Below, piece after piece: positions 1 to 49,016 of a DNA stretch of 49,016 nt (its first letter is position 1; each line of letters opens with the position of its first letter). The notes beneath the pieces were generated by a model, which saw only the letters and a program-made list of their open reading frames with translations, was not told the DNA's origin and did no database searches. The DNA comes from a virus: IMG/VR virus record IMGVR_UViG_3300045988_021641. One strand, 5' to 3'. Made by a program: the position numbers and the translations under genes.

Positions 1-89
1 AAACCGTTTGTCAAGAGTAAATGCACAAAAAAGCAAAAATATTTTTTAGGAGGCCAGAATGAGGGCGATTTCTTCCCGGAAAAGCTGCT
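1..89 (+). repeat. Terminal direct repeat, copy 1 (identical to 48928..49016)
   Basis: Base-by-base comparison: nt 1..89 equal nt 48928..49016. The repeat covers the 3' end and downstream flank of the IS30-type transposase gene. Confidence 0.95.
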
Positions 90-1092
90 CGGAGCACAGA
101 TAACCGAACATTTTGCGGGGGTAGTTGTTCAGCCAGTCCTCGATCCGCTTGGTCTCCTCGTAGGAGATCGTACTCAGGTCGGTGCCCTTCGGCAGGTGCC
201 GGCGTATGAGGCCGTTCTGGTTCTCATTGGATCCGCGCTCGCTTGGCCGGTAGGGGTGGCAGTAGTAGACCTCGGTGCGGGTGCCCTTGCCGCTGGCGCT
301 TCGTTCGATTCCGGCGGCGTCGGCAAACTCGCAGCCATTGTCGCAGGTGATGGATCTGAATACCTTCGGGAACAGGTCGCCGTACTTGGCCTCGAGCCCG
401 TCGATCGCAGCGACGACGCTGGCGGCCGTCTTGTCCGGCGACGGTATAATGAGCTCCCAGCGCGTTTTCCGCTCGGTCATCACGATGTAGGTGTTGCTGA
501 CGCCTTGGCAGCTTTCGACGCTGTCCATCTCCCAGTGTCCGAAGGTGCTGCGGTTGTTGATGTGCTCGGGCCGCTCCTCAATGCTCCGGCCGGCGGGCTT
601 GCGGGGCATGGATCCGGCCGGGCGCTCCGGCTGGTGGCGCTTGCCGTGCTGCGGCAGCATGGAGACGGTCAGCTCGTCGCCGAAGATCTCGCCGCGGATG
701 TAGTTGTAGGCGGTGCTCGCGCAGATGTGGGTCTTGAAGGGCCAGCCCTTGACCTCAGCCTCACCGATCGCGGCCTCCGGGCTGTACTTCTCGTCGCGGA
801 TCTTGGCGATCAGGTAGTCGGCCAGCTCGTAGTCGTTGCCGATCTTCAGCTCCGGCCCCTTGGCGCGGAGGTTGGCCTCATAGCGGGCCTGTGCGCCTTC
901 GGGGTTGTATCTGGTCTCGGTGGTGTAGTCGCTGTTGAGGTGCTCGTAGGTGCACCGCTTCAGCTCCCGGTAGATGGTCGTATGATGGACGCCGAGCTCC
1001 TTGGCGATGTCTGTCGGCTTCATTCCTGCGCGGATGAAGGCGTCGAGCTGGATGCGCTTGGTCGGCGTCAGATGGCTCCAGTGCTGTCCCAT
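46..1092 (-). CDS. IS30-family DDE transposase (348 aa)
   Basis: N-terminal HTH (LTPTKRIQLDAFIRAGMKPTDIAKELGVHHTTIYRELKR). Candidate catalytic-triad context HWEMDSV ... ITCDNGCEF ... RGSNENQNGLIRR. RBS GGAGGGG lies upstream of the ATG. Confidence 0.9.
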   Translation of the reverse strand: MGQHWSHLTPTKRIQLDAFIRAGMKPTDIAKELGVHHTTIYRELKRCTYEHLNSDYTTETRYNPEGAQARYEANLRAKGPELKIGNDYELADYLIAKIRDEKYSPEAAIGEAEVKGWPFKTHICASTAYNYIRGEIFGDELTVSMLPQHGKRHQPERPAGSMPRKPAGRSIEERPEHINNRSTFGHWEMDSVESCQGVSNTYIVMTERKTRWELIIPSPDKTAASVVAAIDGLEAKYGDLFPKVFRSITCDNGCEFADAAGIERSASGKGTRTEVYYCHPYRPSERGSNENQNGLIRRHLPKGTDLSTISYEETKRIEDWLNNYPRKMFGYLCSEQLFREEIALILAS

Positions 1093-1150: not shown

Positions 1151-1414
1151 TCAGTGTTCCTCGTACTTTTTCAGGAGCTCGAGCGTCTCCTCGTCTGTGA
1201 TGATGTCAGCCAGCCTGCACTCCAGCGCGTTGCAGATCTTCAGCAGCGTCGGCAGCTTCGCGCCGTTGATGTCCCGGGCGCCGCGCTCGTACTGCTGGAG
1301 CACCTGCACCTTGATCCCGGCCAGATCGGCGAGCTGAGACTGAGACAGGCCGGCAGCCTTGCGGAGCTTTTGCAGCCCCTCGCTTTTGTAGGTCACTTTG
1401 ATCGAGATGTCCAT
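1151..1414 (-). CDS. XRE/Cro-CI family HTH transcriptional regulator (87 aa)
   Basis: HTH_3-like core GLSQSQLADLAGIKVQVLQQYERGARDINGAKLPTLLKICNALECRLADII. RBS GGAGGAA precedes the ATG. Confidence 0.85.
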   Translation of the reverse strand: MDISIKVTYKSEGLQKLRKAAGLSQSQLADLAGIKVQVLQQYERGARDINGAKLPTLLKICNALECRLADIITDEETLELLKKYEEH

Positions 1415-2158: not shown

Positions 2159-2662
2159 ATGGGTACACGGTTCAGACGTAGTTTCAAAATTGCCCCGGGT
2201 GTCCGGGTAAACCTTAACAAGAAAAGCGCGAGCGTCAGCTTCGGCCCGAAGGGTCTGAAGCACACGATCAGCACGACGGGAAAAAGTCACACGACCGTCG
2301 GGATCCCCGGGACGGGCTTGTCTTATACGACGAGCTCCAGCGGGAAGTCCGGCGCGCAGCAGGGCGCGGTCAGCATCCCCGCAGCGCAGCGGCCGACGTC
2401 CCCGAAAAATAAGACGGTGGCGCTGCTGCTGTGCATCTTCCTCGGCTTCTTCGGGGCCCATCGGTTCTATGTCGGTAAAACCGGCACGGGCGTCATCTGG
2501 CTGCTGACGGCCGGGGCCTGCGGGATCGGCTGGCTGGTCGATATTTTCACCATCCTGCTCGGCGGTTTCTATGACTCCGAGGGCCGTGTGCTGCGGTTCC
2601 AGCCCACAGAGGCCGAGCTCGCCGCTGCCGGTGAAGCGCCGGATCCTGACGCCGAGGAGTAA
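2159..2662 (+). CDS. DUF4236-like N-terminus plus TM2-domain membrane protein (167 aa), moron-like
   Basis: N-terminus [40 protein letters not shown]2-like core [51 protein letters not shown]. It has its own promoter and terminator and is the only convincing plus-strand gene. Confidence 0.85.
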
Positions 2663-2676
2663 AGCCCCACATAACA

Positions 2677-2717
2677 GAAAAAGCCCGCCCGGGATCTCCG
2701 GGCGGGTTTCTGCTTTT
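2677..2717. terminator. Bidirectional terminator between the TM2 gene and the endolysin gene
   Basis: GC stem CCCGCCCGG / CCGGGCGGG flanked by an A-run and TTTCTGCTTTT. The two genes converge on it. Confidence 0.65.
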
Positions 2718-2727
2718 CTATGCGGTT

Positions 2728-3732
2728 TTAGAGTTTCGTGACGTAGTCCAGAGAGATCCAGCCCGCGCCGCTCTTGAGCTTGCCCCACTTGGTCGCGCCG
2801 GGGCCTGCGGCTTCGGCGACGATGGTGTAGATGCCCTTGCCCTTGATCTGGCCGGCGACGCCGTAGTTGGTGCCGGGGCCCTTGCGGATGTTCAGCACGT
2901 CGGCTGTCGTCCGCACGCGGTAGCTCGTGGTCGTGCCGGTGCTGCCGGTCGAGATGTCCGCAGCGTTTACCCAGCCGTAAACGGTGGAGCCGCCGCCGCT
3001 GATTGCCTTCAGGTGGTACGGGTGCGCCTTGCCGGCCGCGACGGCCGTGATGGTGGCCTTGCCGGGCTTGCAGATCTTGGCGTCCTTGGCCGCCGCGCTG
3101 GTGTAGTGCTGCGTGCCCTTGAAGTCGACCACGTCGCCGACCTTCAGGCCGGTCTCGGTGTTGCCGGAGGTCTGGCCGCCGGTGCTGCCGCCTGCGTCCG
3201 TGATGCCGAGGCGCTTGTTGACCTCGGCCGCGATCTGGCCGTGGCGGTTGTAGAGGTAGTCGCCCGGGCAGCTCTTATTCGCGTAGTCCCTGTGCACGGT
3301 CATGTTGCAGCCGTTCAGGTGGTTCACACGGTCGTTTTTGCTGGTCGACCAGACGAGGCGCTTGATGCCGTTGCGCTTGCAGATGTCGGTCACGAGATCC
3401 AGCAGCGCGGCGTATGCCTTCGCGGAGACGGGCCAGTCAGGCGCGCCGCCGTTGTTGGCGACTTCGATGGTGACGGCCCGCTGGTCGTTGGTGTTGGACG
3501 AGGTGCACCACGAGCGGTTTGCCTCGTCGACGTACAGGGCGATCCGGCCGTCGGTGCCGATGCCGTAGTTGCTGGACGCCTGCCGCGCAGAGTTGGCGAA
3601 CAGGTTGCCGCAGGTTTCGACGGAGCAGTTGCCGGCCATACAGTGGATCGTGATGGTGTCGATCTTCTTGGTGCGCTTGCCCGAGTGGTTCGGGCTGAGC
3701 TTGGTATAGACCACCAGAGGGCTGTTACTCAT
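2728..3732 (-). CDS. Endolysin: N-acetylmuramoyl-L-alanine amidase (Amidase_2/PGRP type) with C-terminal SH3-like wall-binding repeats
   Basis: TITIHCMAGN...SSNYGIGTDGRIALYVDE...AVTIEVANNG amidase-2 signature. C-terminal SH3_3-like LNIRKGPGTNYGVAGQIKGKGIYTIV...GWISLDYV. It follows the holin genes. Confidence 0.9.
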   Translation of the reverse strand: MSNSPLVVYTKLSPNHSGKRTKKIDTITIHCMAGNCSVETCGNLFANSARQASSNYGIGTDGRIALYVDEANRSWCTSSNTNDQRAVTIEVANNGGAPDWPVSAKAYAALLDLVTDICKRNGIKRLVWSTSKNDRVNHLNGCNMTVHRDYANKSCPGDYLYNRHGQIAAEVNKRLGITDAGGSTGGQTSGNTETGLKVGDVVDFKGTQHYTSAAAKDAKICKPGKATITAVAAGKAHPYHLKAISGGGSTVYGWVNAADISTGSTGTTTSYRVRTTADVLNIRKGPGTNYGVAGQIKGKGIYTIVAEAAGPGATKWGKLKSGAGWISLDYVTKL

Positions 3733-5292: not shown

Positions 5293-5459
5293 GCTGTTAC
5301 CTCCCCTCCGTCGCCGTAGACCACGTCGGCCAGCTCCATGATGCAGCCCTTCAGCAGCTCGATGGTGTCAGCCTGCTCGGCGATGGTTTTGTCCTTCTTG
5401 GCCTCTGCGGCCTGTTCGTCGTTCAGCTTTTGGATGCTGTCGGCTCTGTGTTTAATCAT
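5289..5459 (-). CDS. Small coiled-coil hypothetical protein (56 aa)
   Basis: ATGA overlap with the stop of the DGR target gene and with the next ORF. Product MIKHRADSIQKLNDEQAAEAKKDKTIAEQADTIELLKG... Confidence 0.45.
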   Translation of the reverse strand: MIKHRADSIQKLNDEQAAEAKKDKTIAEQADTIELLKGCIMELADVVYGDGGEVTA

Positions 5460-7165
5460 GCAAAGTTACCTCCGATCGACTGGATGTAGCAGGTCTCCGT
5501 AGCAGAGCCGCGGAGTAGCTTGGCCTTAACCTTGACGCCCCACGCTGAGGCCGTCTTGGTCTTGTTTGTGAAGTAGTGCTTCTGGCCGGTGCGGGCCTTC
5601 TGCGTGATGTCCTCCCACGTCGGGTTCGCGTCGTTGCCGTTGTTGCAGATCCAGATCTGGAGCGTGCAGCCGGCCGGGAAATTGCCCTGAATGTTGACGA
5701 GGGCCTTGGTCGGCATGGCGTCGGCCTCCATAGCGAGGGTCTGCTCGAACTCGACGGACGTGACGGCCTTGGTGAAGGTCAGCGCGCGGGTGACGCTGGC
5801 GTCCTTGGCGTCGGTCGCCACGATCTTCAGGGTGTGGCTGCCGTTCACGACCTTCAGCCACGCCTCGGAGCCGATCGTCAGCGTGTTGGTCTGGCCGAGG
5901 GTCACGGTGTAGCTGCGCAGCGTGACGCCGTCCAGCATCTCCACGACGTCGACCTGATGGCCGTCGGCGTCGGTGACGGTGTACTCGTAGGACGGGGCCG
6001 CCGTGCTGAAGCTGCCGAGGGCGCCGTCCGTGCCGCTGATGACGGGCGGTCGGTTATTGGTGACGGTGCGGGTGGCGCTGGTGGTGTACGCGCTCTCCGC
6101 GCCGGCGGCGTCGTATGCCTTGACGCGGTACTGCACGCTCGTCCATCCGTAGGTGATGGTGTCGGTGTAGGTGCGCGCGGATCCTTTGTAGACCTGCGCC
6201 CATGTGCCGCTCCCGACCTTGCGCTCCAGAACGTAGCCGGAGAGGTTGCCGTCGGGGTCGGTGGAGGCCGCCCACGAGATGCGCAGGTTCTCGCCGCCGA
6301 GCACTTCGCTCGGGACAGTGATGGACGACGGCGCTGTGGGCGCCTGATTGTAGATCACTGTATAGCATCCATCCGAGTCGACGGAGTCGGAGATCAGGAG
6401 ATCAGAGGACAGATTACAAGCGGGGCGCAGGCCGCGGCCGCCGTAGTAGGCGTAGTCCCAGTACAGAGTGCCAACGGTGCCGACGAGGCGGGCGTCGCGG
6501 GCCGAGCCGGCATAGGCGTCCCGCAGCCAGTAGTACCACGCGGCACCAGAGCCCGGGTTGCTGGAATAGTTGGAATTGGCGACGCAGGAGGCCGTCACGG
6601 TGGCGATGCGGCTGTTGTTGTCGCTAAAGATCGCCAGCTTGCTGCCGCAGACGTGGTCGCCGCTCAGGCCGACCTCAGTGCAGGACAGGGGGAAGATCTT
6701 GTCCGTGCAGGTCTCCGTCCCGCCGCCGTCTGTGGAGCTCTTGCCGACCGTGATGGTGGTGTTCAGCAGAGCTGCCCGCTCGTTGGCGGTGAAGGCGTTC
6801 AGAAAACCGGCGAGGCCACTGTACGGGTTGACGCCGTTCCAGACGTGGGAGGAGTCCGGCGTCTGGTCTGCGGAGTGCTGTGCGGTGTACCACTGGCCGG
6901 CAGCCGCGGGGCTGTTGAGCCACTGGCGCAGGTTCGAGTAGATGTAGCGGTTGTTGCCGTAGCCGCGGCGGTCGCTGTTGCCGTTACTCGGTTCTGTCGC
7001 GTCGAAGCACAGCATCTTGATGATCTGGTTGGTCACGAGCGTGACGCTGTTGGAGGGGTAGCCTGCGTGGTTCTTATCGGCCACGATCCAGACGATCGGG
7101 CTGCCGTACAGGCTGCCGAACTTGACCTTCGACTTGTTTGCGAGGTTGCTCAGTTTTTGGGCCAT
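5456..7165 (-). CDS. DGR target protein 1 (569 aa): N-terminal DUF6273/CLec-like variable ligand-binding domain, then FN3, Ig-like domain and a C-terminal beta domain; likely tail-associated receptor-binding protein
   Basis: Contains VR1. WYYWLRD...GLRPAC signature. FN3 region ISWAASTDPDGNLSGYVLERK...YRVKAYD. RBS AAAGGAG. Sits in the tail-fibre module next to the RT. Confidence 0.9.
   Translation of the reverse strand: MAQKLSNLANKSKVKFGSLYGSPIVWIVADKNHAGYPSNSVTLVTNQIIKMLCFDATEPSNGNSDRRGYGNNRYIYSNLRQWLNSPAAAGQWYTAQHSADQTPDSSHVWNGVNPYSGLAGFLNAFTANERAALLNTTITVGKSSTDGGGTETCTDKIFPLSCTEVGLSGDHVCGSKLAIFSDNNSRIATVTASCVANSNYSSNPGSGAAWYYWLRDAYAGSARDARLVGTVGTLYWDYAYYGGRGLRPACNLSSDLLISDSVDSDGCYTVIYNQAPTAPSSITVPSEVLGGENLRISWAASTDPDGNLSGYVLERKVGSGTWAQVYKGSARTYTDTITYGWTSVQYRVKAYDAAGAESAYTTSATRTVTNNRPPVISGTDGALGSFSTAAPSYEYTVTDADGHQVDVVEMLDGVTLRSYTVTLGQTNTLTIGSEAWLKVVNGSHTLKIVATDAKDASVTRALTFTKAVTSVEFEQTLAMEADAMPTKALVNIQGNFPAGCTLQIWICNNGNDANPTWEDITQKARTGQKHYFTNKTKTASAWGVKVKAKLLRGSATETCYIQSIGGNFA
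6418..6512 (-). other. DGR variable repeat VR1
   Basis: 95 nt colinear with the TR at 8492..8586. By hand alignment there are 17 mismatches, all where the TR coding strand has A. Encodes AGSARDARLVGTVGTLYWDYAYYGGRGLRPAC. Confidence 0.9.
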
Positions 7166-8297
7166 GAGTTGTGTCTCCTTTCGGTGATGGTTTGAGCTCC
7201 GGGAAATAGCTGAAGAAATAGGCGTCCATGTTCTGCCGCAGGTGGTAGGTGTTGCCGTGTGAGATGTGGCCCGTCCAGCTCGCGTAGGATTGCACGACGC
7301 TGTCGAGTGTCATCTTGCCGGAGTCCACCAGCCCGCGGAACTTGCGGATCTTGCGCTTCATGTTGTCGATGCTCTTGGCTCGCACTTTCCTCACGACCTT
7401 GCCGGTCTGCGTGAGGTAGGTGTGAAAACCGAGGAAGTCGATGCCGTTCTTCAGCGGGAGGATCTGCGTCTTGCCGTTCAGCCGAAGGCCGAGCGGCTTG
7501 ATGTACGCCTCGATCTCCTTGAGTATCTGCCGGAGCAGCAGCTTGTCGCTGTGGATGATGTAGAAGTCGTCCATGTACCTGCCATATACGAGGCCGCGGT
7601 CATCCCTCAGCCAGTGGTCGAAGGCGTCCAGATAGAGCAGCGCGAGCAGTTGGCTCGACTGGTTGCCGATCGGGATGCCGGGGTCTGGCGTGCTGTCGAT
7701 TATGAGCCACAGCAGCCACTCAGCGAAGTCGATCAGCTCGGGATCCTTCAGCCACTTCAGGGCCCGGCGGGCCGTTTCGTAACAGTAGGAATGGAGCAGG
7801 GTGTAAAAGAACTTTGAAAAATCGCCCTTCAGTACCCAGCCGTCGGCGTAGTCCCACTCGTTCATCGGCCGGGGCGGCAGGCCGGCAGCCTTGCGGGCTG
7901 CTTCGTCTGCTGCCTTTCGGCTGAAGAAATAGTGGCGCATAGCCGCAGACAGACGGTCGAGGCCGTCGTGGGTGCCTTTGCCGATCTGGCCGGCGTAGTT
8001 GTCCCGGATGAAGCGCCGGGAGAACGCCGGCTCGAGGACGTTGTCGCAGAGCGAGTGCTGGACGACTTTGCCCTCGAAGTCGATGGCGAGGACGAGCCGC
8101 TCCTTGGGCTCGTACACCTTGAAGGGGTAGTAGGGCCCGAAGGAATAGTCGCGCCGCTGGAGCCTCTCAGAGAGGGCGACGGTGCGCTCGATGGCCTCCA
8201 TGCGGTAGCGCATGGCGGTCGGGTTGTCGCGCTTTCCGCAGCGGGTTTTGCGGTATGCTTTGTAGAGCGCGATGGTGCTGTTTACGATATTCTCCAT
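7074..8297 (-). CDS. DGR reverse transcriptase
   Basis: RT motifs including YMDDFYIIH and the DGR-typical IGNQSSQ motif (IPIGNQSSQLLALLYLD). Start taken at MENIVNST (ATG 8297). The ORF tail overlaps the target gene start by about 90 nt. Confidence 0.92.
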   Translation of the reverse strand: MENIVNSTIALYKAYRKTRCGKRDNPTAMRYRMEAIERTVALSERLQRRDYSFGPYYPFKVYEPKERLVLAIDFEGKVVQHSLCDNVLEPAFSRRFIRDNYAGQIGKGTHDGLDRLSAAMRHYFFSRKAADEAARKAAGLPPRPMNEWDYADGWVLKGDFSKFFYTLLHSYCYETARRALKWLKDPELIDFAEWLLWLIIDSTPDPGIPIGNQSSQLLALLYLDAFDHWLRDDRGLVYGRYMDDFYIIHSDKLLLRQILKEIEAYIKPLGLRLNGKTQILPLKNGIDFLGFHTYLTQTGKVVRKVRAKSIDNMKRKIRKFRGLVDSGKMTLDSVVQSYASWTGHISHGNTYHLRQNMDAYFFSYFPELKPSPKGDTTHGPKTEQPRKQVEGQVRQPVRQPDRLDRGR

Positions 8298-8491
8298 TGA
8301 AAAGTCTCCCCGCCGTGTATAGCTCCGGCCGCGCTTTGCGTGCGCCGCCGGGAGCATCGGCGGTCTTGTGTTTACCCATGACCGGGCCGGTCAGACGGCC
8401 GCGGCTGCGGGAGGGATATGCCTTCCTTGGATGATGGGGCACAGTGTTCGCCGTCCGTCTCCGGGCGGTTAATAAGTCGGGCGATCCATCG

Positions 8492-8586
8492 AAGCGGGGC
8501 GCAGGCCGTTGTTGCCGTTGTAGGCGTTGTTCCTGTTCAGAGTGCCATCGGTGTTGACGTTGCGGGCGTTGTTGGCCGAGCCGGCA
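8492..8586 (-). other. DGR template repeat (TR), part of the TR-spacer RNA upstream of the RT
   Basis: Non-coding position between avd and the RT. In the VR frame it reads AGSANNARNVNTDGTLNRNNAYNGNNGLRPAS, with ten AAC codons. About 25 adenines on the coding strand. The 3' end reads GGCCTGCGCCCCGCTT-C versus -G in both VRs. Confidence 0.9.
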
Positions 8587-8617: not shown

Positions 8618-9016
8618 TCACTGGTGACGCTTCTGCGCGTCCAGCTTGGTGGCCCTCTCTTTATCCGTTTTGTACCATTTGGCGGTCTGGTTCTTCACGC
8701 CGGCCGCCATCTTCGCCCAGTATGCAAAGGCGTCATCGCTGAAGCCACTGAGGATCTCATGCGCGAGCTCGATGTGGTGGATCAGCTTTCGGCAGTTGCG
8801 AAGCGCCGACCGCTGCGCGCGATACCTGAGCTCACGCTCCTCGGGATCCGTCAGGAGCAGATCGTTGGTCTCCATCAGATCGGCGACGAGGTCGCTGGCC
8901 TCGTTCATCATCCTCTGCGCCAGACCGAGTCGCTCCTTCTTCGGGAAAACGGCCGGGTTTCTGGTCTTGATGTAGGTGTGTTTCTCGAGCTCCTTGGCGT
9001 CCGTGATGACCTGCAT
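8618..9016 (-). CDS. avd: Avd-like accessory variability determinant (four-helix-bundle protein, 132 aa)
   Basis: The size, the basic helical character, the FPKKERLGLAQRMMNEASDLVADLMETN motif and the position immediately 5' of the TR all fit Avd. Confidence 0.78.
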   Translation of the reverse strand: MQVITDAKELEKHTYIKTRNPAVFPKKERLGLAQRMMNEASDLVADLMETNDLLLTDPEERELRYRAQRSALRNCRKLIHHIELAHEILSGFSDDAFAYWAKMAAGVKNQTAKWYKTDKERATKLDAQKRHQ

Positions 9017-9287: not shown

Positions 9288-9505
9288 CAGCACTCGAGCC
9301 TCCGCTGCCCTGTGTTCCAGATGCCGGATCTCACGGTCAGCCCCTCCAGATCGTCGAATGTGATCTGGAAGGGGTTGCTCGTGATGTCCGTGCAAACGAA
9401 GTCCCACAGGGCGTCGACCTTCACCTTCAGAGCGTTGTCAGCCGCGTCGACATACTCCTTCGTCGTGATGTCCTTCGGGTCGTCGACTGCTCCGTAGTGT
9501 TTCAT
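9287..9505 (-). CDS. Small protein carrying the '...NPF.ITF.DL.G.T...GIWN....RLEC' module (72 aa)
   Basis: The C-terminal 45 aa are paralogous to the C-terminus of the 11537..12286 product. GGAGG RBS. Confidence 0.6.
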   Translation of the reverse strand: MKHYGAVDDPKDITTKEYVDAADNALKVKVDALWDFVCTDITSNPFQITFDDLEGLTVRSGIWNTGQRRLEC

Positions 9506-9517
9506 AGGCCGGCCTCC

Positions 9518-10744
9518 TTACAGTGCGATGCTTGTGATGATGACGAGGATCGGGTTGGAGGGCGCGGCTGCGAGCGTGACCGTGACTTTGCCGTTGGCCG
9601 AGGCCGTGGCGTTCTCGAAAGAGACGTCGCCGATGACCTGCTCCTTGGTGACGCTGTCGATCAGGATCACGCTGAGAATGTAGCCGGTGACGGTGAAGCT
9701 CTTGCTCGCCGCGTCGCTGAGGGTCTGGACGGTCTTGGTGACAGCCTTCGGGATCGCGGGCTTGTTCTTGATGAAGGTGTCACTATTGCCGTCCGTCTCG
9801 TTCCAGTCGCTCTGGACGTTCTTCTCGGCGTCGGCGGGAGCGTGGGCGCTCTGGCTGTGGTCGTATGCCGTCTTGCCGCGGTCGCCGCGGTAGGCGGTGC
9901 TCGCAGTCTCGCCGAGGGCGAGGTCGTTGCCGATGACGGCGTAGGTCGTCCCGCTCCAGCGGTACGTCTTGTTCTGGTACTCGCCTTCGCTCAGGATGAC
10001 GTAGATCTTGTCGGACTCAGGCGTCAGGGCGGCGCCGCCGGAGGTCTTACTCAGCCAGTCAGCACCGAAGGCCGTGGCGCCGGTGCGGATGTAGGCGTCG
10101 ACGACGTCGTCCACATAGCTCGGAAGCTGGTTGGCCGGCACCTTGCCGCCGCTGTCCAGCTCGGCCACGCCGCCGGCTGCGCCCTTTTCCGTTGCGGGGA
10201 TCGCGCCGACGTCAGCGGCAGCGGACGGGATCGTCGGCTTGTCGCTCAGATCCTTATAGCTGCCGGAGAAGGCCACGGTCTTGAGGTCGCTGAAGAACTT
10301 CAGCACCTTGCCGAGCAGGACGCTCAGTTTCTCGCCGGAGACTGGTGCCTCACGCTTGGCTGCTGCCTCGAAGGCGACGGTCACGTTGGAGCCGTCGCCG
10401 TCCGTGTTCAGCTTGCTGGTGTCCTTGGGATGGACGTGGTCGCCGCGCGCGAACGCTGTCTCGGAGCCGACGGCAGCGGTGCCGTTCATCTTCGGTGTGG
10501 TCGTGGATGCGACTGCGCCCTCGGGGACGTCCTCGGCCGTGATGAACTTGCTGTCGTTCTCAAGCTGCGAGATCTTAGTTGGCACAGGGATCCATTTCTC
10601 ACCTGTCCACAGGTACAGCGTCAGGTCGATGCTGTTGAAATAGATCTGGCCGATCTTCGGGTTGGCCGGAGGTGCAGCGAGCGGCTGCATGATGGCGTTT
10701 TGGATCTCGTTCTGTGAGAGATCAATGCTTGTCAGGAATTTCAC
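9518..10744 (-). CDS. Tail fibre protein (408 aa)
   Basis: N-terminus LDLSQNEIQNAIMQPLAAPPANPKIGQIYFNSIDLTLYLWTGEKW is the conserved fibre N-terminal motif. GDHVHP motif. Located in the fibre module. Confidence 0.8.
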   Translation of the reverse strand: MKFLTSIDLSQNEIQNAIMQPLAAPPANPKIGQIYFNSIDLTLYLWTGEKWIPVPTKISQLENDSKFITAEDVPEGAVASTTTPKMNGTAAVGSETAFARGDHVHPKDTSKLNTDGDGSNVTVAFEAAAKREAPVSGEKLSVLLGKVLKFFSDLKTVAFSGSYKDLSDKPTIPSAAADVGAIPATEKGAAGGVAELDSGGKVPANQLPSYVDDVVDAYIRTGATAFGADWLSKTSGGAALTPESDKIYVILSEGEYQNKTYRWSGTTYAVIGNDLALGETASTAYRGDRGKTAYDHSQSAHAPADAEKNVQSDWNETDGNSDTFIKNKPAIPKAVTKTVQTLSDAASKSFTVTGYILSVILIDSVTKEQVIGDVSFENATASANGKVTVTLAAAPSNPILVIITSIAL

Positions 10745-10756
10745 GGGTTTACCTCC

Positions 10757-11158
10757 TTAGTTGAAGTATGCAGTCCCGGAAAAGGCTGCGCAGAAGGTCA
10801 GGCGCACGGTGTTGTCGTCGAGGTAGTCGACCTCCCCGATGACCACAGTGCCGGCGCTGTCGACGACCGTGACGGCGGGCCGCTTTCCGAGGTTGTGGGC
10901 GACTGTCCACACCTTCGCTGCCTGCGCCTGCTTGTGGGTGTGGTGCCTGTCGTCCGTGATGCCGAGCTGCGCCGGCGTCATGTCGCCGATCAGCTCGTGC
11001 CCGTTGATCTTGGGCTTGTTGCGCAGGGCTTCGTAGTTTGAGGCGCTGCCGCCGCCCGTCTCCTTCATGGAGGCGGTCATGGAGGCAGGCGTCTCGGTCA
11101 TCTTCGCCCCGAAGGTCTCCGCGCTGCCAGAGAACGAGGCGTTGAAGTCGACGCTCAC
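10757..11158 (-). CDS. Hypothetical tail-fibre-module protein (133 aa)
   Basis: Well-formed ORF with an RBS, tightly abutting its neighbours. No family recognised. Confidence 0.6.
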   Translation of the reverse strand: MSVDFNASFSGSAETFGAKMTETPASMTASMKETGGGSASNYEALRNKPKINGHELIGDMTPAQLGITDDRHHTHKQAQAAKVWTVAHNLGKRPAVTVVDSAGTVVIGEVDYLDDNTVRLTFCAAFSGTAYFN

Positions 11159-11503
11159 TTAGATGACGCCGTCCTTCAGGATCCGGCTGAGCGGGGCGGT
11201 CATAATGTTGCTCGCAAACGCGCGCCCGTCCTCCGTCCTGCCGCGGATCTGCACCTCCACCTGTTGATCCTCGTCTGGAGACAGAGAGCCGAGCAGCAGC
11301 GTGTCGGCTTGCGTCAGGCTGACGGTGACGACCTTGTCGGTCGCGTCGACGCCCTCGTCCCCGAGGTGCTTGGTGACTTCCACCTGCTTCGGCGGGGCAT
11401 AGGTGGCGAGCTGCTGCGTGCGGAATGTTACCCACATGGTCACGAACTCGCTGACGTCGATGTCACAGTTGATGGTGATGGTTGGTGTGGTGCCTCTATA
11501 CAT
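11159..11503 (-). CDS. Hypothetical tail-fibre-module protein (114 aa)
   Basis: ORF with a GGAGG RBS. The sequence looks beta-rich. No family recognised. Confidence 0.6.
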   Translation of the reverse strand: MYRGTTPTITINCDIDVSEFVTMWVTFRTQQLATYAPPKQVEVTKHLGDEGVDATDKVVTVSLTQADTLLLGSLSPDEDQQVEVQIRGRTEDGRAFASNIMTAPLSRILKDGVI

Positions 11504-11536
11504 GGGCGGCCTCCTTTCTGGCCTTTGGCCGGTAGT

Positions 11537-12286
11537 TTAGCACTCGAGGCGCTGGAGTCCGCTGTTCCAGATGCCGGCCGTCAGGGTGATGCCCGTCAGG
11601 TCTGCAAACGTGATCCGGAAGGGGTTGGTCGTGATCTCGCTGAAAACGGCGTCCCACAGTGTTGCGATCTTGCTGGTGTTCTGGCCGACCGCGTTGCTCA
11701 GGTCATTCACTGACGCCTCGGCGGCCTGTGCGATTGCGATGGCCTGCCGGGCGAGCGCCAGAGCCTCCTCGGCCGTAGCCTGCGCGCCGAGGGCGATGGC
11801 CTTGTAGGTCTCGTAGTCCTCTTTGGTGGCGTAGGCGTCGGCGGGGATGTAGGCGGTCACGTTGGTGGCCGTGCCGATCGCGGTGACGATGTCGATGGTT
11901 TTCTCGACGATGGTGGCGCCGCCGGAGGGCGGGATCCACTCGGCCAGATCGCCGCAGTTGCCGTAGCAGTACAGCACCTCGCCGACCTCGGGATCGGGAT
12001 CTTCGGCATAAAGGCCGAGCTCGCGGTAGTAGAAGCCCTCGGTCTCGTCGCCGTTGGTGAAGATGCCGCCGACGGCCACGGTGCCGTCGCCGTTGATCTT
12101 CAGCTTCGTGATGTCGACGGTCGCCTTCGGGCTGACCACGCCGGTGAGGGTGCGGGGCGTCTGGCCCTCCTCGAGGTAGCCATCGCCGAGGACGATCTTG
12201 GTGTAGTTGATCTTCTGGCCGGCCACGCCCTTCGCCAGAACGATCAGGCCGGCGGTGGTGATGTCGTTGTTGATAAATGCAGCCAT
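11537..12286 (-). CDS. Tail-collar fibre protein (DUF3751-like N-terminus) with C-terminal RLEC module
   Basis: ITTAGLIVLAKGVAGQKINYTKIVLGDG...FYYRELGLYAEDPD...VLYCYGN is typical of P2 gpH-type N-terminal domains. Confidence 0.75.
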   Translation of the reverse strand: MAAFINNDITTAGLIVLAKGVAGQKINYTKIVLGDGYLEEGQTPRTLTGVVSPKATVDITKLKINGDGTVAVGGIFTNGDETEGFYYRELGLYAEDPDPEVGEVLYCYGNCGDLAEWIPPSGGATIVEKTIDIVTAIGTATNVTAYIPADAYATKEDYETYKAIALGAQATAEEALALARQAIAIAQAAEASVNDLSNAVGQNTSKIATLWDAVFSEITTNPFRITFADLTGITLTAGIWNSGLQRLEC

Positions 12287-42624: not shown

Positions 42625-42763
42625 TGTTGTGCTCCTTTCTTTCGGTGACGTTGAAGGTGAGCATCACGCCGCAGGTGACAGGGGTGACGCTCTCGAGCTC
42701 GAGGTCGCGGCCGCTGCGGAGGTGCAGGGTCTCGCCCGGCTTCATTTCGGTGAGGTGTTTCAT
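42611..42763 (-). CDS. Small hypothetical protein (50 aa)
   Basis: ATGA coupling to the upstream gene. Product MKHLTEMKPGETLHLRSGRDLELESV... Confidence 0.35.
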
Positions 42764-43440
42764 CTGGTGCTCCTTTCTGCAAAGAAACGGTGCCCGCCTT
42801 CCTCGATGACGAAGATCTGGCTCTCGTGGAAGTCGCTGGTCACGAGGGTGGGGTTGTAGAAGTAGAGGATCGGCTCGTCCACGACGGTCTCGCCTCGGTC
42901 GAACACGGCCGCGACGGCGTCCTTGACGCGCTGTGTGGGATCCGGCCGGCTCTTGGTGTAGCTGTAAAGGACGACGGCCTCAGAGGGATCGACGCCGCGC
43001 TTCTCGGCTGCGTTGAGGATGCACTGAGCGACGAGCATCTGGCCCTCGAAGGACTCCCCGCCAGCCTCGGCCATGACCACGCGCTCGACGACGTCGCGCT
43101 CGGCGTCGGTCAGAGGGTAGCGCACGGCGGGCTCGGTCGGCTCCACGGTCTCAGCGGCCGGGGCGGGGGTGTCCGGGATGTATGTGCCGACAGTGGTGGT
43201 CGGCGGCAGGATGTTGGTCTCCTGCTTGCTGCCGGCCGGGGTGGTGAAGATTGCCACAGAGATGCCGCCCAGCAGAAGGACGGCAGCGGCCAGCGTGGCA
43301 GCTCTCAGGGCTTTCCTCTTGGCACGGCGGCGCCGGCGTGTTATACTTGCGGTGCGGGATCCGTATGCTGGCAGGCTGCTGGATCTTCTCGCGTGGGTCG
43401 CCCGGTCGCAACGGGCGGCCCTTTCTTTTGTGGTTTCCAT
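42760..43440 (-). CDS. Membrane-anchored SleB-like cell wall hydrolase (226 aa)
   Basis: Basic N-terminus plus a TM segment (ATLAAAVLLLGGISVAIF). Hydrolase_2-like core ERDVVERVVMAEAGGESFEGQMLVAQCILNAAE. Confidence 0.72.
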   Translation of the reverse strand: METTKERAARCDRATHARRSSSLPAYGSRTASITRRRRRAKRKALRAATLAAAVLLLGGISVAIFTTPAGSKQETNILPPTTTVGTYIPDTPAPAAETVEPTEPAVRYPLTDAERDVVERVVMAEAGGESFEGQMLVAQCILNAAEKRGVDPSEAVVLYSYTKSRPDPTQRVKDAVAAVFDRGETVVDEPILYFYNPTLVTSDFHESQIFVIEEGGHRFFAERSTR

Positions 43441-45402: not shown

Positions 45403-46113
45403 TCACTTCCTTCCTGTGCGGGCCGGGAGCGTCTGCTCGGGTCTGGTCAGCCCCTTGCTGAAGCTCTGCGGCTCATATCTGACGCCCACGATCCGGCGGC
45501 CGCTGACGCCGTACTTGGGGTTGTAGCCGAACAGGTTGACGTAGCTACCGAGATCCTCGCGCTCGTCGTCCATCGCCTTCAGCACCTCGAACAGGGTCAG
45601 CACGTCGTCGATGGCGCGATGGCTGTTCTGCACCTTGCCGGTGAGGTCGTAGGCGATGATCGCGTTGGCGAGCTTGTGCGGGTAGGCCCTGCGGTCTTTG
45701 TAGACTGTCAGACTGTCCAGCCAGTCGATCCGGCCGACCTTCTGGCCTCGGAGCAGGCCACGGAGGAAACAGGCGTCGAACTGTGCATTGTGGGCGATCA
45801 TCAGGGTCGGGCCATTCTGCATGAGCTTGGCGATCTGGCCGGCTGCCTTGACCGGCTGCACGCCCTCGGTCTGGAGCCGCCCGTCGGTGATGCCGGTCAG
45901 GCTGACGATGTTCTCCGGGAGGGTCTCGCCCTCGGGTAGCTTGATGAAGGTGTCCATCTTGCCGGCGATCCGTAGGCCGCCGGTTGCCGTGCGCTCCACG
46001 CGCAGGGCGGCGAGCTCGATGATCTGGTCGCTGTCGAAGTCGAGGCCGCTGGTCTCGGTATCAAACACGACGAGGGCCTTGTAGCGGTCGAACAGGGTGG
46101 AGAGGTTACTCAT
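45403..46113 (-). CDS. DnaQ-like 3'-5' exonuclease (DEDDh, 236 aa)
   Basis: Exo I VVFDTETSGL, Exo II IAHNAQFDACFL, Exo III HRAIDDV. Confidence 0.88.
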   Translation of the reverse strand: MSNLSTLFDRYKALVVFDTETSGLDFDSDQIIELAALRVERTATGGLRIAGKMDTFIKLPEGETLPENIVSLTGITDGRLQTEGVQPVKAAGQIAKLMQNGPTLMIAHNAQFDACFLRGLLRGQKVGRIDWLDSLTVYKDRRAYPHKLANAIIAYDLTGKVQNSHRAIDDVLTLFEVLKAMDDEREDLGSYVNLFGYNPKYGVSGRRIVGVRYEPQSFSKGLTRPEQTLPARTGRK

Positions 46114-46810
46114 GCCGGGCCTCCTTCTCGCGGGCAGCTCTCAGGGTGCCGAGCATAAACGAGAGGGCTGTGGTCAGTTGATCCTCGGTGGCGAAGGTGC
46201 CGCCGAACTGCTCGGCCAGCGCCGCGATGATCTCGCCGGCGTGCTCCGGCGTGACGTCGTCGGTGGCTTCGTCGTCCTCGATGGAGATCAGGAGATCGGA
46301 GTCCAGATAACAAGCGGGGCGCAGGCCGTAGAGGCCGTCGTAGGCGTTGTCCCAGTTCAGAGTGCCGCCGGCGTAGACGCTGCGGGCGAGTGACTCGTAG
46401 CCGTTAGACTTCGTGCTGAAGGCGGTGGACAGCCACCACCAGTCGTCTGCGTTCGAGATGACGTCGCGGTTGCGCCGGTACTGGTCGACCGTCAGCAGGA
46501 AGATGGTGACGGTGCAGGTGCCGTAGTCCTTCAGGCCGTCGTCGGTGGTCAGGTCGAGCTCCGTGGTCAGGAAGGCGTTGGGGCCGTTCACGTCCTCGAG
46601 CAGGTTGTCGAGGTAGGCGCCGTTGAGGTATTCCTTGCTGCTGGCGACGGCGAAGTTGTTGCAGTTGCCCTCGTCAAAGGCTCGGGTCTCGATGATGTCC
46701 TTGCTCAGGCAGAGTGCGCGGCCATCATCATTCTCCAGCAGGATCCAGCTCTGGCCGGCATAGTCGAAGGCCGTGCCGCGGGCGGCGTTCTTGAGTGCGA
46801 TCTTTTTCAT
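46106..46810 (-). CDS. DGR target protein 2: stand-alone DUF6273/CLec-like domain protein (234 aa) in the early region
   Basis: Contains VR2. Homologous to the N-terminal domain of target 1 (WWWLSTA...GLRPACYLDSDLLIS). No signal peptide is evident. Confidence 0.88.
   Translation of the reverse strand: MKKIALKNAARGTAFDYAGQSWILLENDDGRALCLSKDIIETRAFDEGNCNNFAVASSKEYLNGAYLDNLLEDVNGPNAFLTTELDLTTDDGLKDYGTCTVTIFLLTVDQYRRNRDVISNADDWWWLSTAFSTKSNGYESLARSVYAGGTLNWDNAYDGLYGLRPACYLDSDLLISIEDDEATDDVTPEHAGEIIAALAEQFGGTFATEDQLTTALSFMLGTLRAAREKEARHE
46312..46388 (-). other. DGR variable repeat VR2 (remote)
   Basis: 77 nt colinear with TR 8492..8568. There are 10 mismatches at TR adenines plus one non-A mismatch (46367). 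The 3' GC-rich end GGCCTGCGCCCCGCTTG is identical to VR1. Homology decays 5' of 46388. Confidence 0.85.
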
Positions 46811-46986
46811 GGGGTTGCTCCTTTCGTTCTCTGCGGCCGAGCCTTCTGGCTGGCCTGAATGTTCGGCAGGGTCTCGCCGGCGCGGAGCCGGCTCTCACAG
46901 TGCGGGCAGATGTAGCCGGTGCGGGGGATCTTCTGGTAGATGCTGACGTTCCAGTCGAGCCCGCAGCCGACGCACTTGGCTGTCAT
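46807..46986 (-). CDS. Small zinc-ribbon protein (59 aa)
   Basis: CVGCG...CPHC. ATGA coupling on both sides. Confidence 0.5.
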   Translation of the reverse strand: MTAKCVGCGLDWNVSIYQKIPRTGYICPHCESRLRAGETLPNIQASQKARPQRTKGATP

Positions 46987-47714
46987 GGGCCTCCACCTCC
47001 TTCCGCAGCCAGAGCCTCGAAAACGTAGCGCCGGATGCGGTTGCGGTACTTCTTCCGGGTTCTGGCTTTCTTTGCGTGGGCCGCGAGGTGCAGCCACTTC
47101 GGCGGCACTCCGATGGCCCTGACCGATACCTTCCAGAGCTTTTTGAAGGCAGAGAGCACGGCGTTGATGACCGGCTTCATGGCTTCGGCCAGCTTGGCGG
47201 CGATTTCCCGCAGCGCGTCGGCCAGTCTATCGAGGGCTTCGTGGGCCTGCTGCATCTTCTCGTGATCGGCGAGCGCCATGCTGCCGTCGTAGACGTAGGG
47301 GCTCAGCTCGTCATCGCCGCCGTCGGCCAGACGCTCGCAGAACGGGAGGCCGGCAGCTTCAGCAGCCTTGCGGCCCTCCTCGAGGGCGTCCCGGCCTTGC
47401 GTGACTTCGCAATAGTCCGCGAGGCGGTTGTGGCCGCCTTCGTAGTGCCAGCGGATCCCGGCGGCGATCTCGTCGATGGTCATGCTCTCACCGAAGTGGC
47501 CGCAGTAGTAGCCGTTGACGATGACGGCGTCCGGGTCTGCCTTCAGGATCCCGATGGCGTCGTTGAGATCGTCGGTCTCCCACTCGCCGTTCCAGATGTC
47601 GCTCCAGATTGTCAGGGCGTTCCACGAGCGGCCGGTGCGATACACGATTGTCCAGCCGATGCCGTCACGGATCTCCGCGGCGAAGTCTCGGGCGATGTCT
47701 CTCAGTGCTGCCAT
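46983..47714 (-). CDS. Hypothetical early protein (243 aa)
   Basis: Clean ORF; no family recognised. Confidence 0.65.
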   Translation of the reverse strand: MAALRDIARDFAAEIRDGIGWTIVYRTGRSWNALTIWSDIWNGEWETDDLNDAIGILKADPDAVIVNGYYCGHFGESMTIDEIAAGIRWHYEGGHNRLADYCEVTQGRDALEEGRKAAEAAGLPFCERLADGGDDELSPYVYDGSMALADHEKMQQAHEALDRLADALREIAAKLAEAMKPVINAVLSAFKKLWKVSVRAIGVPPKWLHLAAHAKKARTRKKYRNRIRRYVFEALAAEGGGGP

Positions 47715-48912: not shown

Positions 48913-49016
48913 ATGATAACGGACGGCAAACCGTTTGTCAAGAGTAAATGCACAAAAAAGCAAAAATATTTTTTAGGAGGCCAGAATGAGGGCGATTTCT
49001 TCCCGGAAAAGCTGCT

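Follow-up and report, generated by a model that had tools for sequence, protein, structure and literature searches.

The window analysed here, that is, the whole 49,016-nucleotide stretch of viral DNA, contains the target-2 gene (tgt2; 46106..46810, minus strand), the orthologue of nd4_tgt2. The ORF encodes 234 amino acids and matches Pfam DUF6273 (2e-9) and, over its full length, phrog_9958 (5e-77; residues 1-203, profile positions 2-209/210). Directly upstream lie the genes for a basic Cys4 zinc-ribbon protein of 59 residues (46807..46986, minus strand; pI 9.6, 4 Cys; phrog_6107 4.5e-24, with weak treble-clef matches) and for a protein with the polyvalent-protein-associated domain LPD15 (46983..47714, minus strand; Pfam LPD15 1e-38). 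On the other side tgt2 is followed by a DnaQ-like 3'-5' exonuclease gene (45403..46113, minus strand; Pfam RNase_T 4.6e-19; phrog_192, the PHROG "DNA polymerase exonuclease subunit"). The ATG of tgt2 overlaps the zinc-ribbon stop codon as ATGA and its own stop overlaps the exonuclease start as ATGAGTAA, the complete order being LPD15, zinc ribbon, tgt2, DnaQ exonuclease, C5 MTase, Gam, Erf and SSB. A sigma-70-like promoter (TTGACA-17-TATCAT; 48913..48941, minus strand), predicted from a near-consensus match only, is located about 2.1 kb upstream of tgt2, and a search for minus-strand terminator-like sites after it, down to position 40000, gave none. The initial annotation had placed the gene in an early/replication operon, coupled to the zinc-ribbon and exonuclease ORFs. 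The Pfam/PHROG gene content, the promoter-like site and the two overlaps confirm this placement and support the assignment of tgt2 to a predicted early replication/recombination operon, in which it would be translationally coupled on both sides. A membrane-anchored cell-wall hydrolase is encoded in the same operon.

The DGR comprises a reverse transcriptase gene (RT; 7074..8357, minus strand; Pfam RVT_1 1e-10; phrog_1423 2e-115), whose translation contains the IGNQSSQ and YMDD motifs, the gene of the accessory protein Avd (8618..9016, minus strand; phrog_3206 "Avd protein of DGR", 6e-26) and the template repeat (TR; 8492..8586, minus strand), which has 95 nt, 25 of them adenines, and is identical in sequence to the nd4 TR. 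All three are intact, and both genes adjoin the TR. The target-1 gene (tgt1; 5456..7165, minus strand; Pfam DUF6273 4.5e-39; phrog_10993 2e-254) encodes a tentaclin, or "Hoc-like" protein, with DUF6273 as its N-terminal domain and Ig-like domains after it. It carries VR1 (95 nt; 6418..6512, minus strand), whose 17 mismatches to the TR are all at adenines. Tail-fibre genes separate from tgt1 and tgt2 are also present in the genome. Because bases 1-89 are 100% identical to bases 48928-49016, forming a terminal direct repeat of 89 bp, the contig corresponds to a 48927-bp circle, which is permuted with respect to phage nd4. Measured across the junction of this circle, about 11.0 kb separate the TR from VR2 (11.7 kb in the terminase-first linear map of nd4), and the distance of 38 kb from the RT first given for this target is thus an artefact of linearisation.

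VR2 (46312..46388, minus strand) spans 77 nt and codes for residues 141-166 of tgt2 (LARSVYAGGTLNWDNAYDGLYGLRPA). In the minus, coding sense it aligns colinearly and without gaps with TR 8492-8568, with 11 mismatches, ten of them at TR adenines and the remaining one a T->C change at TR 8547. The hypergeometric probability of such an adenine bias (at least 10 of 11, on 21 adenines among 77 positions) is about 3e-6. VR2 draws on the 3' 77 nt of the TR alone, and is a shorter VR because nothing in it corresponds to the 18 nt at the 5' end of the TR (8569-8586). VR1, VR2 and the TR have a common 3' end, the 16-nt GC-rich GGCCTGCGCCCCGCTT (46312..46327 in VR2, minus strand), directly after which the VR-specific and TR-specific sequences part; in the VR2 alignment it occupies an IMH-like position and is invariant in 74 orthologues. 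By the BPP-1 paradigm, this GC-rich end may be regarded as a putative IMH. The colinearity, the adenine-centred differences and the 3' end in common with VR1 had all been noticed at the outset and were reproduced by the ungapped alignment. The 5' limit of VR2 is fixed inside CGCCCGC, and the 21 TR adenines that it covers correspond to 12 codons; in both target frames, the TR adenines are found only in codon positions 1 and 2. VR2 is a true second target of the single DGR of the genome.

The diversity of VR2 was assessed in public viral contigs, where 76 colinear IMG/VR loci gave 74 distinct orthologues with a unique VR2. Among these 74, the minor-allele fraction is 0.52 at the 21 TR-adenine positions, 0.008 at the other VR positions and 0.011 in the flanks, and conservation reaches about 99% at the 56 non-adenine VR2 positions and 240 flank positions. 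Of the mismatches to the TR, 882 are at adenines and 34 elsewhere. Three close orthologues of tgt2 differ almost solely in VR2. When tgt2 relatives are clustered at 90% identity, clusters contain up to 33,878 member sequences, and the VR-length variants contain partial VR duplications. Polymorphism of populations at adenine sites, set beforehand as the test of whether the repeat is active, was therefore found, and VR2 is diversified actively or very recently at the lineage level.

The tgt2 protein contains a DUF6273/C-type-lectin-like domain (aa 1-178) and two C-terminal helices (188-201 and 209-233). Its AF2 model has a pLDDT of 91.6 and was built on a diverse 102-sequence alignment, a shallow alignment of close orthologues having given a pLDDT of 41. 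In the model, VR2 residues 141-166 form a β-hairpin (141-155, with strands 141-145/151-155) at the C-terminal end of the lectin-like domain; surface exposure of the VR in nd4_tgt2 has been reported by Baykov et al. (PMC10743442). Foldseek searches with the model retrieved DUF6273 proteins (E <= 1e-8) and the IgA-protease N-terminal domain 9qa6 (E = 2.6e-7), and matched the C-lectins Lcl and CD94 weakly. The protein is acidic (pI 4.3) and its maximum KD19 is 0.75; neither a hydrophobic N-terminus nor a TM segment was found in its sequence, and neither an Ig/Fn3 nor a fibre-anchoring domain was found by Pfam or in the AF2 model. Pfam, Foldseek and the structure prediction, which had been suggested as a check, thus agree with the first description of a small stand-alone lectin-like protein with no obvious virion-anchoring domain. 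The missing signal peptide had been used as an argument for intracellular action; it has no discriminating power here, since virion proteins have none either, nor does tgt1.

The block formed by LPD15, zinc ribbon, tgt2 and exonuclease is conserved in more diverged lineages, the zinc-ribbon gene being directly upstream of tgt2 in all those in which that flank was recovered. Nd4-like loci containing the exonuclease and devoid of tgt2 were sought and none was found, 19/19 additional loci keeping tgt2 in the same gene order wherever flanks were recovered. A synteny survey, also proposed initially, revealed that a neighbourhood of replication/recombination/MTase type recurs in four phage lineages. 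The neighbours are Dam, Mom-like, zinc-ribbon and MazG-like genes in nd12, MTases, SPFH, Rep and Q around the small target of Toutatis/Lelie, and RtcB, SPFH, HTH, zinc-ribbon and Rep genes in a Petralouisia prophage. The stand-alone small DUF6273 family comprises 603 clusters at E < 1e-10 (50% identity), mostly of 180-310 aa, and the C-terminal helix pattern of tgt2 is conserved across lineages. In a set of 102 representatives of the family, some proteins are fused to Lar-like, MazG-like or DUF4406 domains, and Cys4 zinc ribbons are present at either end in 7-8; Ig-like domains are found in only 3 and a long hydrophobic stretch in 1. The nd12_tgt2 protein has an N-terminal DUF3310 domain (2.5e-16). 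Some of the fusion proteins may be gene-calling or assembly artefacts. Proteins of 293 aa resembling a fusion of the zinc ribbon and tgt2 result from an indel at the ATGA/A-run junction and were not counted as fusions, because they may be assembly errors. Assignment of a host from genome contigs was set aside, as the close matches in MAGs labelled Collinsella, Gemmiger, Oscillospiraceae, Alistipes and others look like binning noise; one related prophage has been reported in Flavonifractor plautii (Baykov et al., PMC10743442).

The best explanation as a whole, to which we give a probability of roughly 0.55, is a DGR with two targets, the second of which encodes a cytoplasmic, non-virion binder. 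One DGR (Avd 8618-9016, TR 8492-8586, RT 7074-8357) serves both VRs: the TR RNA is converted into cDNA with adenine-specific errors, which replaces VR1 in the adjacent tentaclin gene and, in trans, the 77-nt VR2 about 11 kb off on the circular genome. The tract replaced in VR2 extends from the common GC-rich 3' end up to the CGCCCGC limit, randomising 21 adenines (12 codons). The product is a soluble, acidic protein, in which one DUF6273/C-type-lectin-like domain presents the VR as a β-hairpin, probably at the surface, and is followed by two helices. It would be made from an early, host-promoter-driven replication/recombination operon alongside the coupled basic zinc-ribbon protein. In this role tgt2 would be a diversifiable binding module for counter-defence or host take-over, and not a virion receptor-binding protein. 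We see about an even chance that two parts of this explanation hold jointly, namely early operon expression with the zinc-ribbon protein and action within infected or lysogenic cells, directed against a variable factor of the host or of a competitor. Several observations count against a cytoplasmic protein. The place of a gene in the genome does not by itself establish when or where its product acts, the operon includes the membrane-anchored hydrolase, and the same TR also feeds a presumed virion protein. Furthermore, DUF6273 proteins of known location are always extracellular or virion-associated, as are the tentaclins, the N-terminal domain of a secreted IgA protease (PMC12402451) and a Mushuvirus tentaclin found in the secretome (bioRxiv 2026.05.08.723808). 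The non-adenine T->C change of the window's VR2 relative to its own TR was also counted against the explanation.

According to the published idea, tgt2 would be an Mtd-like receptor-binding protein or accessory adhesin in the virion, perhaps attached via its C-terminal helices, and the DGR would retune adsorption. We consider this possible, though unlikely. The fold class is the same as that of Mtd, RBP and tentaclin domains, and the VR repertoire is rich in residues that are typically seen in binding sites, namely aromatic ones, Ser and Asp (PMC10743442); moreover, the VR, like that of Mtd, sits at the C-terminal edge of the lectin domain, the conserved C-terminal helix pattern could be an attachment element, and virion proteins normally have no signal peptide. 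However, the N-terminal β-prism/β-sandwich of Mtd type was not found in tgt2, for which Pfam gives DUF6273 only and AF2 one globular domain plus two helices, and an Ig or fibre-anchoring domain is likewise missing. A sequence-profile search of the PDB with the tgt2 family returned the IgA-protease DUF6273 domain only and no Mtd chain at E <= 1. Four lineages have the gene in replication/recombination/MTase neighbourhoods instead of a tail module, the adjoining genes with which it is translationally coupled encode a Cys4 zinc ribbon and an exonuclease, and the genome has separate tail-fibre genes. Two DGR target genes are present in only 39/54 nd4-like genomes, the tentaclin target being always kept (PMC10743442). 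The early-operon context in four lineages, together with the fusions of relatives to cytoplasmic-type domains (zinc ribbons, SaV-like, Lar-like, MazG-like and DUF4406), favours a cytoplasmic binder over the Mtd-like idea, and this survey of context and fusions shifts the balance towards the cytoplasmic explanation, short of proof.

A soluble lectin that acts outside the cell and apart from the virion, being released at lysis or during lysogeny and binding cell-wall glycans, mucus or immune molecules (lysogenic conversion or decoy), appears improbable. Such a role would have a parallel in the DGR-diversified DUF6273 tentaclin of Mushuvirus prophages, which was detected in the bacterial secretome without particles (2026 preprint, bioRxiv 2026.05.08.723808), and would suit both the closest solved structure, the N-terminal domain of a secreted IgA protease (PMC12402451), and the presence of the cell-wall hydrolase in the operon. 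Against it, tgt2 has no signal peptide or TM segment, 101/102 relatives are without long hydrophobic stretches, and the recurrent fusion and adjacency to Cys4 zinc ribbons argue for a reducing, cytoplasmic setting.

It is very improbable that VR2 is a mere relic, in the sense of a paralogue of VR1 which received TR sequence in the past, has decayed and no longer serves the DGR as a substrate. The single non-adenine mismatch (TR 8547) and the absence of homology to the 5' 18 nt of the TR could be read as decay, and a search for a BPP-1-like hairpin 3' of the VRs gave only weak, non-conserved stems (z = -1.7 for VR2, -2.1 for VR1). Nevertheless, 74/76 orthologues have a different VR2 with the changes confined to the 21 TR-adenine positions, a confinement of hypervariability that marks VR2 as an active target and leads us to reject the relic at the lineage level. 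The same pattern is seen in two further diverged lineages of 66-69% identity, within each of which the proteins are near-identical outside the VR. The 5' boundary of VR2 is identical in all orthologue sequences, so that the short VR2 is a stable design and not a product of decay, and VR2 positions 22 and 28 have non-adenine polymorphisms that recur with many different adenine patterns, in keeping with TR variants. As for chance or plain DUF6273 paralogy without a DGR, tgt1 and tgt2 are indeed paralogous around the VR (LRPAC.L.SDLLIS), but 55/56 non-adenine positions of VR2 match the non-coding TR while the paralogous flanks diverge, and the adenine bias and the population pattern reduce this origin to a negligible probability and exclude it.

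To our knowledge, every phage DGR that is understood from experiments retunes virion proteins in contact with the host exterior. Were tgt2 to act within the cell, the reach of DGRs would extend to phage counter-defence or host take-over, and small DUF6273 proteins would offer a ready scaffold for binders that work intracellularly. A broader statement, that the DGR of a temperate gut phage randomises, besides a virion adhesin, the binding hairpin of a cytoplasmic, early, lectin-fold protein, which with a zinc-ribbon partner would be an evolvable, "adaptive" recognition module of the phage for counter-defence or host take-over, and that this holds family-wide in the early regions of Clostridia phages, is more tentative and may well prove too wide. 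The finding mainly confirms the published work on nd4_tgt2; what is added here is the comparative evidence that questions the published Mtd-like assignment, namely the early-operon context, the adjacency and fusion to zinc ribbons, and the fusions of SaV, Lar, MazG and DUF4406 type.

Judged by its sequence, tgt2 is the already published nd4_tgt2, described as target 2 for the DGR of the gut phage nd4 (OR777945; Baykov et al. 2023, Int J Mol Sci 24:17324), and the novelty implied initially does not stand. The nd4 genome is 97-99% identical to the window, with an identical TR, and nd4_tgt2 has 234 aa, is 95% identical to the protein described here and carries the same short VR2 with 21 adenines. 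Both phages have the DUF6273/C-lec fold with a VR hairpin and a tentaclin as target 1, and they differ only in the VR2 sequence and a few SNPs, apart from an extra tail-fibre cassette in the window (9409-11539). The nd4 paper (PMC10743442), in which the Mtd-like role was proposed, does not discuss the early-operon location. The Faecalibacterium phages Toutatis, Lelie and CP11 (bioRxiv 2024.10.15.618418; PMC11792537) have, as in the window, a single DGR with a large "Hoc-like" DUF6273 target by the RT and a small stand-alone one at a distance of kilobases, 17.5 kb in Toutatis; the small target is gp24 in Toutatis and orf58 in Lelie. Like tgt2, the small target has its VR at the C-terminal end of DUF6273 and a non-structural neighbourhood; in contrast, these proteins are only about 30% identical to tgt2, their neighbours are MTases, SPFH, Rep and Q instead of a zinc ribbon and an exonuclease, and the phages are siphoviruses, not myoviruses.

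An intracellular DGR target had been presented as an uncharacterised role, yet a distal non-structural target had earlier been put forward for Quimbyvirus (Benler et al. 2021, Microbiome 9:78, PMC8008677), which has one DGR and two C-lec targets, one of them by the tail genes. The distal one lies among conflict-related non-structural genes (DNA-modification enzymes, tRNA ligase) in a defence/counter-defence island and was read as non-structural from its context only, which makes it a conceptual precedent for the intracellular idea. It belongs to another phage family with a Bacteroides host, the target is on the opposite strand, and the likeness is one of description. Mtd of Bordetella phage BPP-1 (PDB 1YU0) resembles tgt2 in its C-type-lectin fold, the VR at its C-terminal end and the AAC-codon design of its TR, but it has 381 aa with a β-prism and a β-sandwich, is trimeric on the tail fibres and is encoded beside the DGR in the tail module, all of them features that tgt2 does not share. 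Tentaclins combine an N-terminal C-lec domain with Ig-like domains, including a conserved C-terminal Ig anchor, which tgt2 lacks. Finally, the DUF3310 domain of nd12_tgt2 provides a likeness to the SaV (sensitivity to AbiV)/DUF3310 proteins of lactococcal phages. SaV is transcribed early and acts inside the cell (PMC8306868), whereas the tgt2 of the window has no DUF3310, and the link consists of a domain fusion in a relative only 24-40% identical.

The diversity-generating retroelement (DGR) is complete, with a reverse transcriptase (RT; 7074–8357, minus strand; Pfam RVT_1; phrog_1423, 2e-115), the accessory protein Avd (8618–9016, minus strand; phrog_3206), a template repeat (TR) and two variable repeats (VRs), which a repeat finder grouped with the TR as one family. 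VR1 (6418–6512, minus strand), inside the 569-aa ORF adjoining the RT (target 1), differs from TR 8492–8586 at 17 positions, all 17 at adenines. VR2 (46312–46388, minus strand) lies in target 2, a 234-aa gene (46106–46810, minus strand) surrounded by genes of the same strand, and its coding-sense alignment to TR 8492–8568 is ungapped, with 11 mismatches. As initially annotated, ten fall on TR adenines, the remaining one being a T→C change at TR 8547. The pattern is far beyond chance (3e-6 for at least 10 of 11 mismatches on A, with 21 adenines in 77 positions). The GC-rich 3′ end reported for both VRs, GGCCTGCGCCCCGCTT, is indeed common to TR, VR1 and VR2, whose sequences differ beyond it. The 5′ 18 nt of the TR have no homology in VR2 (seven non-A mismatches), which is therefore a shorter VR. 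TR adenines are restricted to codon positions 1 and 2 in both target frames, mostly in AAC codons.

The orthologues in the window, phage nd4 (OR777945) and MT836645 are nearly identical over the whole gene, except for VR2. Searching IMG/VR for exact matches to the invariant sequence directly 3′ of VR2 gave 89 stretches, and variability was counted in the 76 that are colinear around it. Different VR2 sequences are present in 74 of these loci. The minor-allele fraction averages 0.52 over the 21 positions with a TR adenine, against 0.008 over the 56 non-A VR positions and 0.011 over 240 flanking ones; of the mismatches to the TR, 882 are at A and 34 elsewhere. Target 2 is thus an active second DGR target at the lineage level, where the differences among loci, confined to TR-A positions, rule out an inactive relic. 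A second scan, anchored on the exonuclease gene, recovered more diverged lineages, with target 2 proteins 66–69% identical and, in each lineage, nearly identical outside the VR, bar a few sub-lineage substitutions. In a database of 5.8 billion proteins, related 90%-identity clusters number 980, some holding thousands to 33,878 member sequences.

Recurrent non-adenine polymorphisms occur at VR2 positions 22 (window 46367; T/C) and 28 (46361; T/G). They are retained across many unrelated A-patterns and therefore probably stem from sub-lineages with variant TRs; the single non-A change of the window is the C at position 22, where its own TR has T. Four database orthologues (P0011, P0024 and P0031, 248 aa; P0096, 252 aa) carry a 14–18-aa partial tandem duplication within the VR, repeating ARxVxxDGxLxxxxA, as expected for misaligned cDNA integration, which suggests that VR length can change during homing.

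The 38 kb reported between the RT and VR2 proved to be an artefact. Bases 1–89 of the window equal 48928–49016, an exact terminal direct repeat, so that the assembly is circular (48,927 bp), with TR and VR2 about 11.0 kb apart over the junction (11.7 kb in nd4). The window is 97–99% identical to nd4, in reverse-complement orientation and with a circular permutation that places nd4 position 1 (terminase end) at about 30189. In the gene order obtained from the nd4 map and PHROG annotation, terminase, head, tail and fibre genes are followed by Avd, TR, RT and target 1, then by holin and endolysin, a divergent gene, a Cro-like HTH gene and an IS30-like transposase, and finally the early operon. 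The IS30-family DDE transposase (46–1092, minus strand; phrog_4646, 7e-135) occupies the place expected of a lysogeny integrase, near the Cro-like gene (1151–1414, minus strand) and the divergent ORF (2159–2662, plus strand). An IS30 transposase is found at the equivalent place in phage nd12, and integration may rely on the transposase in these phages, in place of a tyrosine or serine recombinase. A 2.1-kb segment of the window (9409–11539) is not in nd4 and brings an extra tail-fibre-like gene (9518–10744); direct repeats 74% identical (9289–9421 and 11539–11671), the C-terminal ends of two adjacent fibre-like ORFs, suggest duplication or exchange of a fibre cassette.

Target 2 is, as described, coupled between a zinc-ribbon ORF and a DnaQ-like exonuclease: its ATG overlaps the stop of the 59-aa basic Cys4 ORF (46807–46986, minus strand) at ATGA, and the exonuclease start overlaps its own stop (ATGAGTAA). 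Directly upstream of the pair is a stand-alone LPD15 protein (46983–47714, minus strand), kept there across lineages at 50–64% identity; elsewhere, this domain occurs in giant "polyvalent" proteins encoded by phages and conjugative elements. The survey of related phages found the LPD15–zinc ribbon–target 2–exonuclease block retained in diverged lineages wherever flanks were recovered. A near-consensus sigma-70-like promoter is predicted 2.1 kb upstream of target 2, and no same-strand terminator-like site was found after it. Downstream of the exonuclease come a C5 methyltransferase, a membrane-anchored cell-wall hydrolase, Gam, Erf and SSB. The hydrolase-like protein (42760–43440, minus strand; 226 aa) combines a basic N-terminus and a single TM helix (KD19 2.3) with a C-terminal domain resembling cell-wall hydrolases. 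The early operon is an odd location for a wall enzyme; the early region of nd12 also encodes a Hydrolase_2 protein.

The description of target 2 as a small stand-alone lectin-like protein holds. DUF6273 is its only Pfam domain (2e-9), and it matches phrog_9958 (function not annotated) over its full length (5e-77). The AlphaFold2 model, built on a diverse alignment (pLDDT 91.6, pTM 0.78), has a globular domain (residues 1–178) followed by lower-confidence helices (188–201 and 209–233), the VR residues 141–166 forming a β-hairpin (141–145, 151–155) and the stretch that leads into the strand after it. Foldseek retrieved viral DUF6273 proteins (best E 1.7e-10), the N-terminal DUF6273 domain of the IgA protease from Thomasclavelia (9qa6; E 2.6e-7) and, weakly, the C-terminal domain of Legionella Lcl and the CD94/NKG2A C-lectins; the family profile matched 9qa6 alone among PDB sequences, with no match to Mtd. 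The protein is acidic (pI 4.3). Neither a hydrophobic N-terminus nor a TM segment was detected, in line with the reported lack of an obvious signal peptide; the same is true of target 1, so this feature alone is no argument against virion association.

The proposal that target 2 binds an intracellular partner is plausible and somewhat strengthened here, with a probability of roughly 0.35–0.5. By guilt by association, genomic context and domain fusions point towards a binder that is cytoplasmic and expressed early, perhaps in partnership with the zinc-ribbon protein. DUF6273 was matched in 100 of 102 family representatives. Of the 102, seven or eight bear a fused Cys4 zinc ribbon, at one terminus or the other, three have Ig-like domains, only one has a long hydrophobic stretch, and rare members carry Lar-like (above Pfam's threshold), DUF4406 or MazG domains. 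Zinc ribbons and such enzyme domains are, as a rule, cytoplasmic. Independent relatives (P0190, P0215, P0242, P0254, P0257, P0255, P0264, P0266) fuse unrelated Cys4 ribbons to the DUF6273 domain. Several 293-aa database proteins (P0005/P0008) join the zinc-ribbon ORF and target 2 in frame through an indel at the ATGA/A-run junction; these represent assembly errors or else genuine fusions. The nd12 target 2 has an N-terminal DUF3310, the domain of SaV, which is a lactococcal phage protein made early and acting inside the cell (PMC8306868). The published alternative, an Mtd-like receptor-binding protein, was proposed with no discussion of the gene's location (PMC10743442). We consider it somewhat less likely than the intracellular role. 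Two points count against a cytoplasmic binder: DUF6273 is extracellular or virion-borne in every case of known location, and a cell-wall enzyme is encoded in the same operon.

Target 2 is not new, contrary to what had been implied: it is the nd4 target 2 of Baykov et al. 2023 (PMC10743442), who described two-target DGRs in nd4 and nd12, with target 1 as the 569-aa "tentaclin", and A-site variation across 39 nd4-like genomes. The tentaclin gene (5456–7165, minus strand) and the RT ORF overlap by 92 nt in their longest forms (7074–7165), and the nd4 annotation has a later start (542 aa, versus the 569 aa quoted). At least three phage groups are documented to share the general two-target architecture. 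Toutatisvirus pairs a large "Hoc-like" target with a small distal DUF6273 target, a core gene 17.5 kb from the TR, and Lelie and CP11 carry the same pair (bioRxiv 2024.10.15.618418; PMC11792537). The non-structural setting of target 2 recurs in other lineages. The small target neighbours Dam, Mom-like, zinc-ribbon and MazG-like genes in nd12, and methyltransferases, SPFH, Rep and antiterminator Q in Toutatis and Lelie. A Petralouisia muris prophage (NM01_1-7b; 2212–3444, 6001–6537) encodes a stand-alone DUF6273 homologue (178 aa, 41% identical) near an RtcB tRNA ligase, together with SPFH, HTH, zinc-ribbon and Rep neighbours. The idea of an intracellular-type target also has a conceptual precedent in the Quimbyvirus DGR, whose second target, in a defence/counter-defence neighbourhood, was termed probably non-structural (Benler et al. 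2021, PMC8008677); the RtcB neighbour in Petralouisia recalls the tRNA ligase beside that distal target.
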